From contig OX597815.1 of the NCBI GenBank assembly GCA_951406725.2, forward strand, positions 61,752,001 to 61,816,000: a DNA stretch of 64,000 nt. The letters are read 5' to 3'. This document shows positions 11,781 through 47,839 of this stretch, in pieces. A model generated the notes under the pieces. That model did not search any database. It was not told the DNA's origin and saw only the letters and a list, made by a program, of their open reading frames with translations. The stretch is from Octopus vulgaris (taxonomy: Eukaryota). Each line of letters starts with the position of its first letter. Within the stretch, counting starts at the first letter, position 1. The position numbers and the translations under genes were made by a program.

Positions 11781-11930
<150 letters not shown>

Positions 11931-12050
11931 ACAATAAAGGAACGGCCATAATAGGCCATTCACCCACTAGAAATAACAGCCAAAGCTTCAACCGCAAATA
12001 AAAGTTAATTCAGTAAACCAGGAGAAAATTTAAAAAACATTTACCCTGTA

Positions 12051-12157
12051 ATTTCTTATACGATATACCGTTTCATCTGCTGATTAATGGTAAACTAACC
12101 TGATTAAATTAAATCAAGCCAATCTTCCACAGGCCCTCAGATTCTTCAGTAAGAAAT
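12051..12157 (-). ncRNA. Type I hammerhead ribozyme (monomer copy 1)
   Basis: Reverse complement of the motif at 12596-12702. Confidence 0.85.
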
Positions 12158-12595
12158 AGCCCAAGACGGAACAGATATTTTCACGAGGCATTTCCGACGT
12201 TGCCAAGTTAATATCTGACCTAAAATTTTCAAATCGTCGCACTCGCGCCAAATTTATCGGCAGCAAATAAATATAAGCCGTCGATTCCATTACGGAATTA
12301 ACCAGAAAATTCATAATTAATCAATATAGGGTGGCAAAAAAAATTTTGTAGAATTCTTTTGCCACCAGCGGCCTAGTAGGAAAAAATTAAAATAGTCATA
12401 GACCATTTTTAAGTTCAACATCAACAATAAAGGAACGGCCATAATAGGCCATTCACCCACTAGAAATAACAGCCAAAGCTTCAACCGCAAATAAAAGTTA
12501 ATTCAGTAAACCAGGACGATTTGAAAATTTTAGGTCAGATATTAACTTGGCAACGTCGGAAATGCCTCGTGAAAATATCTGTTCCGTCTTGGGCT

Positions 12596-12702
12596 ATTTC
12601 TTACTGAAGAATCTGAGGGCCTGTGGAAGATTGGCTTGATTTAATTTAATCAGATTAGTTTACCATTAATCAGCAGATGAAACGGTATATCGTATAAGAA
12701 AT
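12596..12702 (+). ncRNA. Type I hammerhead ribozyme (monomer copy 2)
   Basis: Stem I ATTTCTTA/TAAGAAAT; core CTGAAGA; stem II ATCTG/CAGAT closing a long insert; GAAA; stem III A-CGG(TATA)TCG-T; GUA cleavage after 12694. Confidence 0.88.
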
Positions 12703-13087
12703 TACAGGGTAAATGTTTTTTAAATTTTCTCCTGGTTTACTGAATTAACTTTTATTTGCGGTTGAAGCTTTGGCTGTTATTTCTAGTGGGTGAATGGCCT
12801 ATTATGGCCGTTCCTTTATTGTTGATGTTGAACTTAAAAATGGTCTATGACTATTTTAATTTTTTCCTACTAGGCCGCTGGTGGTAAAAGAATTCTACAA
12901 AATTTTTTTGCCACCCTATATTGATTAATTATGAATTTTCTGGTTAATTCCGTAATGGAATCGACGGCTTATATTTATTTGCTGCCGATAAATTTGGCGC
13001 GAGTGCGACGATTTGAAAATTTTAGGTCAGATATTAACTTGGCAACGTCGGAAATGCCTCGTGAAAATATCTGTTCCATCTTGGGCT

Positions 13088-13194
13088 ATTTCTTACTGAA
13101 GAGTCTGGGGGCCTGTGGAAGATTGGCTTGATTTAATTTAATCAGGTTAGTTTACCATTAATCAGCAGATGAAACGGTATATCGTATAAGAAAT
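13088..13194 (+). ncRNA. Type I hammerhead ribozyme (monomer copy 3)
   Basis: Same fold. Stem II is GTCTG/CAGAT, where an A-U to G-U change keeps pairing. Cleavage after 13186. Confidence 0.88.
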
Positions 13195-13420
13195 TACAGG
13201 GTAAATGTTTTTTAAATTTTCTCCTGGTTTACTGAATTAACTTTTATTTGCGGTTGAAGCTTTGGCTGTTATTTCTAGTGGGTGAATGGCCTATTATGGC
13301 CGTTCCTTTATTGTTGATGTTGAACTTAAAAATGGTCTATGACTATTTTAATTTTTTCCTACTAGGCCGCTGGTGGCAAAAGAATTCTACAAAATTTTTT
13401 TTGCCACCCTATATTGATTA

Positions 13421-13497
<77 letters not shown>

Positions 13498-16449: not shown

Positions 16450-16519
16450 TATACATGTAATTTAATTTTTGGTATATACATATATATATTTATATACATA
16501 TATATACATATATATATAC

Positions 16520-16550
<31 letters not shown>

Positions 16551-16574
16551 CATATATATAACATATATATATAT

Positions 16575-16621
<47 letters not shown>

Positions 16622-16672
16622 GTGAGGGAAGAAATGGAGCTGAACGAAGATTTTACAAAATTCCTTTTTATT

Positions 16673-16758
16673 ATTTTCTACATATGTTTCAAAGGCTGCA
16701 AATTCCCCAATTCGGATTGAATAAGGAGACCATTTTGCAGCTTTCTCTTCAGGAAAAT
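16673..16758 (-). ncRNA. Type I hammerhead ribozyme in a ~260 bp TA-flanked insert (16619-16878)
   Basis: Minus strand: ATTTTC-CTGAAGA-GAAAGCTGCAAA...TTTGCAGCCTTT-GAAA-CATATG-TA-GAAAAT. Stem I is 6 bp, stem II is 12 bp with one mismatch, and stem III is the palindrome ACATATGT. Confidence 0.88.
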
Positions 16759-16917
16759 CCAGGAACTTAAATCTCCAAACAAATGTGCAGCAAGCTTTTC
16801 AACAAACGCTCCCTAGGAGCCCATGGTATGAATGGCACAAAACTGTCTCTCAATATGCGTTGACGTCAGGGTGGGTGAAGGCCGACGAAAAAGTCCGTAT
16901 ATATATATATGCATACA

Positions 16918-16951
<34 letters not shown>

Positions 16952-17019
16952 TACATGAATACATATATATGTCTATATATAGATACGTATCTGTCTATCT
17001 CTCCCTCTGTGTGTGTATA

Positions 17020-17065
<46 letters not shown>

Positions 17066-17311
17066 TATGTGTAAACACACAGAGACACATATACATGTGT
17101 GTGTGTTTCTGTGTGTATGAGTGAGTATGCTTGTGTTTGTGTAAATGTTGTCCGGCAACATTATATATTAAATATAACACCCAACTAAAAGCTTCTGCAT
17201 CTCTTAAAGCAGAAATAGATGTATGCTAATGAATCTCATAACATAACCATTATTTACCCTGCCATCTCTTTTTCTTGTTCTCGCTCTATACTCGTCTAAC
17301 TCTTAATTCTA

Positions 17312-39026: not shown

Positions 39027-40760
39027 CTAGCATTATGACCCCTCGTTGCCGGGTCATAGTGCTAGTGCATGTATGTATGTGTATATATATGTGTACATAT
39101 TACATGTACATCTATATATATACATCTACACATAAAATACAAAATACAAAGTTATATCTTAATATCGCTAGTGATAACAATACTCAAAATATATAACAGA
39201 CTGGAATTGTAGGCCCGTCTCTTGCAATTTCGATCAATTGTATCTTGTCCTCCCTCTTGTATAGAAGTGTGACTACAATCCAGCCTACCTCTACTTCTGG
39301 GGTACATTTTTATTTTTTATCCGGGACGTCCTACGTCCCAGATATAAAGGTAAAAATAAAATATTTCCACTTTGCAAGGTTCGAGTCGAGTACTCCCTTG
39401 CACGCTCCGTTGACTCGAACCTTGCTTCTATTGTGGCGAATTTACCGCCTCTCGTTAGATATCTTTCATAGTCGCACCAAGACTGCTTTCCTCCAGGTGT
39501 TCAAATATTTTTTCCTCTCTACATTGTATACTTTATAGACAATAGTCTTTTCTTTAATTTAATTTTTTATTTCGTTTGGTGATGTTATCCTATATTCAAC
39601 GTCTTTGTCGGTGATCAATCCGAAATAGGTTTGTATTTCTTCCATTTTAATTTTAATGAATTTGCGCCCGCCGACGGCTGCAGCGAAATTCAATTTTGGA
39701 CTTTCTTCTATCGAAGGCATTCTAACAAAAATGCTTCCGTGTAAACGGTGAAAATATTGTTAATTTCCCCAAACAGGGACACAATTCAATTTTTAAACAA
39801 TAACCAAAGCTCCTTCTCCCAAAGGGGGAGGGTTACAGTTTACAATTATTTAACAAATGCAACACAACAACGTTTCCCTTACGAGGAACCAACAAACGCG
39901 ATAACAATAGTTAAACAGTAATAATAATAATAACAACAAACCTTACGGTAAATCAAAAAGCTGTACGCAGTTGAAGCTATAGTCCTTTGTGTATAAGAAA
40001 TAAACCAACAGCAGTACTCAATAGAAGCGGCTGTTCGAAAAAACAGACATTACATACAGCCAAACTTCATATAGATACTTAATGCTAGCTAATTAGCAGA
40101 TAATCTAATGTAAAAGCCGTGGTAAACTGTATGTGCAGACCTCCATCTGGACTATTCCATTTCTGCACGCTAATTTTATTTTTTATTTATTCCCATTCAT
40201 GTGATATTACTTATTCAAGTTCAAGTCATTGATGCAATTTTATACCAATTGCTATTTTTACTTTTGTTATGTTACGATTATATTATACTTTAGTTTGATT
40301 TTAATTATTACTTACTACATATAATTCAATTGTTATTATTATCTCTAATTTTTATTGTTAAAGTGAAGGTATCTGACATAAAATAGAGAAATGTTTTTGT
40401 CTCACTTTTAACACGTAATACTGAAATAGTGGAGAAGATATGATATTGCTATGGGCTCGCCCTAGGCAAGAAGTTGAACATTTTTTGCCCATCAAACTAC
40501 ATGGACGCTAAGTAAGGCATGTGTAAAATTTGAATGAAATTGGTTGTGTAGTTCTCAAGTTTTAGGGAATCGTAGTGGAGAAGATATGATATTGCTGTGG
40601 GCTCGCCCTAGGTAAAAAGTTAAAAAATTTTTTTCCGATGACACTCCCCAGACCCTAAGTAAGGCATGTGTAAAATCTGAATGAAATTGGTTGTGTAGTT
40701 CTTCAGTTTTATGGAAACACACAGACAGACAGACACGCATTCTCAGTTTTATATATATAC
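39027..40760 (-). mobile_element. Non-autonomous Helitron
   Basis: The 5' end TATATATAAAACTGAGAATG.. is shared with the adjacent Helitron. A 3' hairpin plus CTAG|T lies at 39027, and there is a ~145 bp internal tandem duplication (40428-40570 / 40575-40715). Confidence 0.85.
39215..39720 (-). pseudogene. Captured fragment resembling LINE (L1/Tx1-type) ORF1 N-terminus
   Basis: MPSIEESPKLNFAAAVGGRK...KEKTIVYKVY...YLTRGGKFATIEARFESTERARE...PLYLGRRTSRIK, broken by stops and frameshifts. Confidence 0.5.
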
Positions 40761-47224: not shown

Positions 47225-47295
<71 letters not shown>

Positions 47296-47839
47296 CTAAT
47301 ATAGGATTAAATTTTATCAAAACAAAGCTTATTAAAAAATAACTTTAAAGGTTAAATTTATAAACAACTTGTAAACAAGGGCAAAAGAAAAAAATTTCTA
47401 ATATCAAATATGCCGAAACTAGACACATCGTCCATAACCATATAATTCATCTCTATAAGCACGCGTCTCGAAGAAAGCCGATAGAAATTTCTTAAAAATT
47501 CCGTTATTACCATATCGGACCCGATTTCAGAGTTAATTCATAAGAACCTTCTCTTCGTCAGTGATAAATGCGGCAAAGAAATAAATGAAATACTTATACC
47601 CATGGAAGAAATATATATAAGTTGTATATATATATATACATGTATACATATTATATAGCTCTGCACGGACATGTAGACACTACATACACAAACATACACA
47701 CGCACGCACACACACACACACATACACACACACATATGCACACGTGCATAAACATGCAAATATCTACATTTATTTATCAATCTGCCCATGTCTGTCTTTT
47801 TGTGTCAGACTGTCATCCGGTGTATCTGTTTCTCTGTCT

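Follow-up and report, generated by a model that had tools for sequence, protein, structure and literature searches.

The minus-strand insert at positions 16619..16898 of the window (the whole 64,000-nt stretch of Octopus vulgaris DNA that was analysed) is very probably the 5′-truncated 3′ end of an autonomous, Hydra-like Penelope-like element (PLE), likely integrated at a nick made by a GIY-YIG endonuclease in a (TA)n array and carrying a hammerhead that is predicted to act only as a pair. The insert and its surroundings comprise:

16619..16898, minus strand, 280 bp: read as the 5′-truncated 3′ end of a Hydra-like PLE (pLTR lacking the tail of ~150 nt); over 283 nt, it shares 94% identity with the 3′ end of the full-length copy L061
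16369..16618, no strand: (TA)n array at the 3′ end of the element (family end 1), a junction that recurs in 19 of the 30 loci sampled
16899..17068, no strand: (TA)n array where the 5′ side of the element is cut off, presumably the second half of the target

The original prediction had placed a TA-embedded insert of ~260 bp at 16619..16878; TA arrays do lie on both sides, but the insert extends to 16898 and, at 280 bp, is 20 bp longer. Its assignment to a PLE family was borne out, since other copies run upstream into a 3′ UTR of ~620 nt and an ORF for an RT and a GIY-YIG domain. The 5′ end of the insert lies 220 nt upstream of the predicted cut, and most sampled copies are shorter. No ORF remnants were found in the window by tblastn with the family ORF. 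Having neither an ORF nor a partner in cis, the window copy is probably an inert, dead-on-arrival passenger. The TA array 5′ of the insert holds a 13-bp direct repeat (window 16910-16961), a possible target-site duplication or slippage product.

The hammerhead motif

Positions 16758-16673 of the minus strand form a complete type I hammerhead with its open end in stem I and a core of the form CUGANGA...GAAA...NUH. Its parts, all on the minus strand, are:

16758-16753, minus: stem I 5′ arm AUUUUC, six Watson-Crick pairs with the 3′ arm
16678-16673, minus: stem I 3′ arm GAAAAU, paired with AUUUUC at 16758-16753
16752-16746, minus: catalytic core CUGAAGA
16745-16734 with 16702-16691, minus: stem II, 11 pairs and one A·C mismatch
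16745-16691, minus, 55 nt: stem II region with its apical hairpin
16690-16687, minus: GAAA
16687-16680, minus: stem III 8-mer ACAUAUGU
16679, minus: cleavage nucleotide A of the triplet GUA, with the predicted cut after it
16768-16761 with 16665-16658, minus: distal stem Ib, which closes internal loop 1, with predicted pair probabilities of 0.68-0.99

Every part of the canonical minus-strand hammerhead that had been predicted (CUGAAGA, GAAA, GUA and a 6-bp stem I) is present, and the stem III described as self-complementary is indeed a perfect palindrome over its 8 nt. The proposed 12-bp stem II does span 12 positions and has an apical hairpin in its loop, but it consists of 11 pairs plus the A·C mismatch. 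The motif is also, as stated, unrelated to the first hammerhead family of the window (11929-13423), where the best blastn match is 19 nt long (E 7.3).

A strict descriptor matched the whole window once, at 16758-16673, and gave 0 matches in 200 dinucleotide-shuffled windows. By folding prediction, a hammerhead-shaped fold lies at most 0.2 kcal/mol from the minimum energy, with a predicted probability of only ~0.4 for stem I and only ~0.3 for the three basal pairs of stem II; the folding z-scores are unremarkable (−1.2 and +0.95). Rfam yielded no family at gathering score in the window, and no Rfam hammerhead model was found at E up to 10 in 16500-17000, with only TA-repeat artefacts appearing by E-value. 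The 55-nt stem II region may be longer than the Rfam models allow. The hammerhead motif is confirmed as genuine.

Family copies and the full-length element

A search of the octopus genome with the insert returned 1886 candidates, and with 40 of them scored, at least 42 matches besides the window copy span nearly all of the 280 nt at 93-98% identity. A 22-mer of the core has 857 exact genomic copies and a second 22-mer has 1,325, with 0 occurrences of the reversed 22-mer controls. Of 29 further top loci, which were selected because they cover the query, 28 extend upstream of the 5′ end of the window copy into the family UTR.

Loci picked by the 5′ end of the ORF reveal the order of the full unit: a pLTR with hammerhead, a tail of ~150 nt, the ATG, an open RT-EN ORF of ~900 aa, the UTR and another hammerhead, which follows the first at a distance of 3,682 bp. 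An inverted 5′-truncated partner is often present as well. L061 exemplifies this order, with a 5′-truncated pLTR and its hammerhead, the ~150-nt tail, the ATG, an open ORF of 902 aa, the UTR and a hammerhead 3,682 bp later; it has two direct pLTR hammerheads and an inverted 5′-truncated copy in front. ORFs open from Met were found in five loci (902, 900, 904, 895 and 895 aa), the hammerhead lies ~270 nt upstream of the ATG, and CUGAAGA is intact 0.5-0.8 kb past the end of the ORF in 19 of 20 loci, most of which were picked by ORF similarity. The family thus has the partial-tandem pLTRs, the inverted 5′-truncated partner, the optional tail and the hammerhead within the pLTR that characterize EN+ PLEs. 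L064 carries an internal deletion that leaves its hammerheads ~1.75 kb apart, possibly a step to a non-autonomous derivative. Contigs of four runs that are only guessed to be RNA cover 29-30 of 30 element bins; such contigs are blind to strand, ends and level.

The original prediction had favored a solo monomer of a second retrozyme/PLE family. Read as a retrozyme, the insert would be a single unit of 170-400 nt from a non-autonomous tandem family that spreads as a small circular RNA. The length of 280 bp, the type I hammerhead and the short palindromic stem III fit what is described for retrozymes in PMC7229834, and a genuine tandem family of such kind (493-bp period) is present in the same window. 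However, the unit length is not fixed, the 5′ ends of copies being spread between +16 and points past −1475 as counted from the cut, and the insert sequence is collinear with the intact PLE 3′ UTR. When the first 100 of the 857 sites were counted by eye, there were 0 same-strand neighbours within 1 kb, against 13 divergent opposite-strand pairs. The tandem copies sought elsewhere in the genome did not appear, as these 100 sites include no short head-to-tail arrays; the window itself has no short head-to-tail tandem of the insert sequence. The retrozyme monomer is therefore largely refuted in favor of a variable-length end of a coding element, and we regard it as highly improbable.

Other repeats in the window

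The first hammerhead family occupies window 11929-13423, with hammerheads at 12059-12149 (minus strand), 12604-12694 (plus strand) and 13096-13186 (plus strand) and a period of 493 bp. Genome-wide, its arrays are 96-99% identical and reach seven units or more, and inverted 5′-truncated parts occur as well; its two 3′ ends, ~100 nt apart, and its TA flanks are a PLE-type insertion signature. This family is a young non-autonomous tandem retrozyme. A third hammerhead-like motif (47561-47513, minus strand), with CUGACGA and a stem III around AUCGGGUCCGAU, lies in window 47295-47620, which belongs to a TA-bounded repeat family of ~310 bp with 3571 candidates at 86-95% identity, often arranged in inverted pairs, and which is possibly another PLE end. 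Window 40427-40716 holds a two-copy tandem of 147 bp with 86% matches.

Insertion into TA arrays

Thirty loci were sampled following genome order, and each of their 30 3′ ends falls in at least (TA)5, compared to a background of 3.6-4.6% of positions, while the element itself supplies at most three TA units at end 1. Nineteen of these ends are at end 1, as in the window copy, ten are at end 2 after the tail and one is inside the tail; this two-ended pattern matches the two start sites of reverse transcription described for PAc (PMC11167929). Inverted partners are present in 18 of the 30 loci, corresponding to 16 distinct insertions, 15 of which have the tail at one end only, and an inverted partner with a one-sided tail is what the legend of Fig. 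2 in PMC8557442 describes for PLEs. Most "solo" rows in the comparison of 5′ flanks reflect alignment limits of diverged subfamilies and are uninformative on pre-existing TA.

Of the 30 copies, which were chosen by a motif 3′ of the cut and some of which are two arms of one insertion, 27 extend 5′ past the cleavage site and one starts at +1. Hence, the template was likely uncut or re-ligated. A pile-up of 5′ ends at the cleavage site was not seen (1 of 30 at +1, two at −5 and −7); 5′ ends cluster instead at −140 to −185 (12 of 30) and at −53 to −58 (5 of 30) relative to the cut (L136-L165). The truncation clusters lie near a small hairpin and inside stem II and may mark sites of RT stalling or strand switching.

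Conservation of the ribozyme and the role of stem III

Stem III is self-complementary, with G·U allowed, in 90 of 94 distinct copies, which carry ACAUGUGU (41), ACAUAUGU (38), ACACGUGU (11) or a broken stem (4). Across ACAUAUGU, ACAUGUGU and ACACGUGU, the central pair changes as U-A, U·G and C-G, and in a tree built without the eight stem III nucleotides, the U-A and C-G lineages fall within the U·G ones. The calculated energy of the intermolecular duplex is −7.0 kcal/mol for U-A, −6.0 kcal/mol for U·G and −10.3 kcal/mol for C-G, versus −2.9 kcal/mol for the rare UU. For mixed pairs, the calculated values are −7.0 and −8.5 kcal/mol when the U·G allele meets the two others and −3.0 kcal/mol when U-A meets C-G. 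Since the two central bases of stem III are unable to pair within one molecule, the series points to selection on the intermolecular duplex. As a comparative argument, it supports selection for dimers through stem III, with few independent events that are all transitions. The change of CG to UG is the ordinary route of CpG decay.

The dimer idea of the original prediction thus gains comparative support, but its claim of efficient cleavage does not hold up, as PLE hammerheads are described as cleaving weakly in vitro even as dimers (PMC4209133). One of them, from the anole (PAc), needed its protein to cleave (PMC11167929). It is imaginable that the hammerhead of the same element works as a monomer through a 2-bp stem III and a tetraloop, aided by loop 1-loop 2 contacts or a PLE protein, with the palindrome being incidental. 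The hammerhead fold within 0.2 kcal/mol of the minimum is in line with this, a 2-bp stem III costs only ~1.1 kcal/mol more, and the two hammerheads of the full element are 3.7 kb apart; furthermore, a coral retrozyme monomer is described as cleaving efficiently (PMC7229834), and the anole PLE hammerhead is a protein-assisted one (PMC11167929). In a monomer, however, the central nucleotides of stem III would be loop residues, and yet the lineage-fixed U-A, U·G and C-G variants all keep the intermolecular duplex, so we consider a monomeric ribozyme somewhat unlikely.

Covariation is seen outside stem III as well. In a set of 22 rows, stem pairing reaches 90.5%, compared to 38-51% in slid controls, and six pairs are changed on both sides; these rows are related, which inflates pairing, and were picked by a pattern that fixes the core and the outer stem III pairs. 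Across subfamilies, stem II has changes on both sides at 4 of its 12 positions. Between a distant subfamily and L061 (19 of 20 loci), the UTR is 32-54% identical, compared to 89% for the stretch from GAAA through stem III to the cut site, 83% for loop II and 77% for the 3′ flank, with the 100% conservation of CUGAAGA being given by construction because this core was the alignment anchor. Conservation thus extends to loop II and the 3′ flank and is not specific to the ribozyme.

This touches on another possibility, namely, that the hammerhead-shaped region persists mainly because it offers a structured platform on which the RT-EN protein binds or primes and that cleavage is dispensable for mobility. 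The conserved loop II and 3′ sequence would fit, as would the intact cleavage site in 27 of 30 copies and the report that catalytic mutants of PAc left insertion in vitro unaffected (PMC11167929). On the other hand, the cleavage triplet varies only between GUA (86) and GUC (8) in 94 rows, with G at that place excluded by the search pattern, and CUGAAGA stays intact in the 19 of 20 loci mentioned above, mostly picked by ORF similarity. A mere platform is in our view rather unlikely, and it is compatible with the identification of the insert as a PLE end. The three natural stem III alleles offer a ready-made test of dimer-dependent cleavage. The flanks of L037, L084, L104 and L052 contain more hammerhead-like families, one of them with a ACAUAUGU stem III and an unrelated stem II; cross-family dimers are conceivable.

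The protein and the missing linker

The family ORF has the motifs DKT (SDKTRN), QFD and YRDD (GLYRDD) and a C-terminal AIY...YIG domain, in which R, H, E and N align to homologs and, by eye, to the GIY-YIG pattern of Fig. S7 in PMC8557442. A predicted model (mean pLDDT 53.5, from an alignment of nine) has telomerase RTs as its top five Foldseek matches (E 4.5e-7 to 1.8e-6), and an Atlas cluster near the C-terminal domain, taken as a lead only, has GIY-YIG in 11% of its members. Pfam gave no significant RT, GIY-YIG or other family in four and then seven proteins, and a PDB sequence search with alignment A1 gave 0 matches. Between subfamilies (five pairs, where dS is unsaturated), dN/dS is 0.06-0.14 in the RT and 0.06-0.24 in the EN, and it is 0.5-1.2 in two low-complexity inserts of the ORF (five pairs). 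By these ratios, the RT-EN ORF is under purifying selection, and the family would accordingly have long relied on its own protein for mobility. A public fragment 89% identical to the family protein (P0077, Octopus sinensis) is named "probable serine/threonine-protein kinase dyrk1" at NCBI, and P0014 from Argonauta hians ("GATA zinc finger domain-containing protein 14-like") is a piece of the family or of a relative; both names are likely misannotations. PLE-like ORF pieces also stand beside a family copy at L031:3813-4352 and L031:999-1940, one bearing RWK and one resembling a canonical PLE thumb-EN by eye.

Hydra PLEs are defined by RWK, DKT, an EN without CCHH, a CxCX5C linker, CxxC/CxH, canonical hammerheads and (TA)n insertion, and they are generally shorter than 3 kb (Craig et al. 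2021, PMC8557442). The octopus family has DKT, an EN without CCHH and, in most copies, CxxC (CNLC or CALC) and CxH (CPH) around a conserved E and N, from which single copies deviate; at the aligned position of RWK it has RWL, and its period of 3,682 bp is above the Hydra range. The CxCX5C linker is absent in all six aligned family ORFs, which are 74-85% identical to L061, in P0001 and in the public fragment P0077. A conserved cysteine-free segment, preceded by an Asn-rich insert, takes the place of the linker and has a dN of 0-0.15 versus a dS of 0.2-2 across subfamilies, where computable. A CxC-type linker is kept in 58 of 59 homologs with an EN (of 75 homologs), and CxCX5C occurs in nine of nine Hydra rows of Fig. 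S7 in PMC8557442. In an unrooted RT tree of 54 rows, from which 24 of the 75 homologs were dropped for missing anchors and which has no named reference families, the family forms a group with a partial Argonauta protein and two homologs that bear CxC (SH-aLRT 100). This grouping with linker-bearing relatives makes loss of the linker on the family branch the simplest reading. We class the family as a Hydra-like PLE and not as a textbook Hydra member.

Craig et al. tie (TA)n targeting to the cysteine linker (PMC8557442). How, then, does a family with a cysteine-free segment reach TA arrays? Another Hydra family with its CxCX5C linker still in place could provide the targeting in trans. The retention of a CxC-type linker in 58 of 59 EN-bearing homologs would allow for this, a linker-bearing Hydra family from octopus is described in the supplement of PMC8557442 (Hydra-1_Obim), and a second, RWK-bearing PLE ORF is present in L031. 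The purifying selection on the EN and on the cysteine-free segment of the family argues for mobility by its own protein instead, and help in trans appears distinctly unlikely. A possible, though tentative, reading is that the lineage is Hydra-derived and lost its linker, that TA targeting comes from the EN or from AT-rich RNA pairing, that stem III records selection for dimers and that the RNA is a re-ligated circle. If this is true, microsatellite targeting is independent of the linker and stems from the endonuclease itself or from AT-rich RNA start sites that pair with the nicked target; dimers then join sites 3.7 kb apart, and the unit RNA, once re-ligated, is a circle on which reverse transcription begins at two start sites. 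As a natural case of linker loss with intact ORFs, the family makes the linker-targeting hypothesis of PMC8557442 directly testable.

A model for mobility

In our model, the GIY-YIG EN of the element would nick a (TA)n array, and reverse transcription would start at one of two internal sites that lie 3′ of the cleavage site, at ~60 and ~210 nt, and the first of them would have served for the window copy. The RT would copy through the intact cleavage site, with uncut or re-ligated RNA as the template. Early stalls of the RT would give short ends, and the window copy presumably stopped after ~280 nt. Two hammerheads in full-length or read-through transcripts would pair via the palindrome and cut out unit-length RNA, perhaps aided by the protein of the element. 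Cutting of multimeric transcripts to unit length is a role proposed for PLE hammerheads (PMC4209133).

Comparison with known systems

A hammerhead in a PLE pLTR is already known, and the window copy itself is ordinary: roughly a thousand or more such truncated ends exist. In the literature, we found no description of the octopus family or of a linker-less Hydra-like PLE, PMC8557442 being the only relevant source; Repbase or Dfam may catalogue the family. The Hydra clade as described by Craig et al. (2021, PMC8557442) shares with it a single ORF with RT and C-terminal GIY-YIG, DKT, GLYRDD, the absence of CCHH, CxxC/CxH, a type I hammerhead near the 3′ end, (TA)n insertion and inverted 5′-truncated partners. 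In contrast to the CxCX5C linker and RWK of that clade, the octopus family has the cysteine-free segment and RWL, and it measures ~3.7 kb with ~900 aa compared to <3 kb. Its stem II has 12 positions and a 31-nt apical part, whereas the stems in File S2 of PMC8557442 have 3-7 bp and short loops. From Hydra-1_Obim, it differs by the N-terminal sequence and the hammerhead seen in the supplement of that paper.

The PAc Poseidon PLE of Anolis (Frangieh et al. 2024, PMC11167929) is described as having an optional tail set by two internal RT start sites, AT-rich targets and genomic copies with the hammerhead intact, all of which resemble the octopus family. The tail is ~150 nt in octopus and 30-40 nt in PAc, and the hammerhead lies ~270 nt before the ATG in octopus but overlaps it in PAc. 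The ends of the octopus family adjoin short AT-rich stretches that could pair with the target, whereas PAc is described as initiating without homology (PMC11167929).

Animal non-LTR retrozymes (Cervera and de la Pena 2020, PMC7229834; bioRxiv 10.64898/2026.07.22.740005) likewise have a type I hammerhead and a short palindromic stem III, and their size is similar to that of the window copy alone. They are described as non-coding fixed-unit tandem repeats, whereas the insert derives from a coding element that has a hammerhead period of 3.7 kb and whose copies are truncated to variable lengths (PMC7229834 for the retrozymes). The PLE pLTR hammerheads of Cervera and de la Pena (2014, PMC4209133) are, as in octopus, mostly single truncated copies or opposite-strand pairs 100-700 bp apart, with a long helix II and a palindromic helix III. 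Compared to the minimal form given there, the octopus hammerhead is more canonical, having a 6-bp helix I with a distal extension and an 8-nt palindrome, and to the hammerheads described in that paper the family adds the series of U-A, U·G and C-G across its subfamilies.
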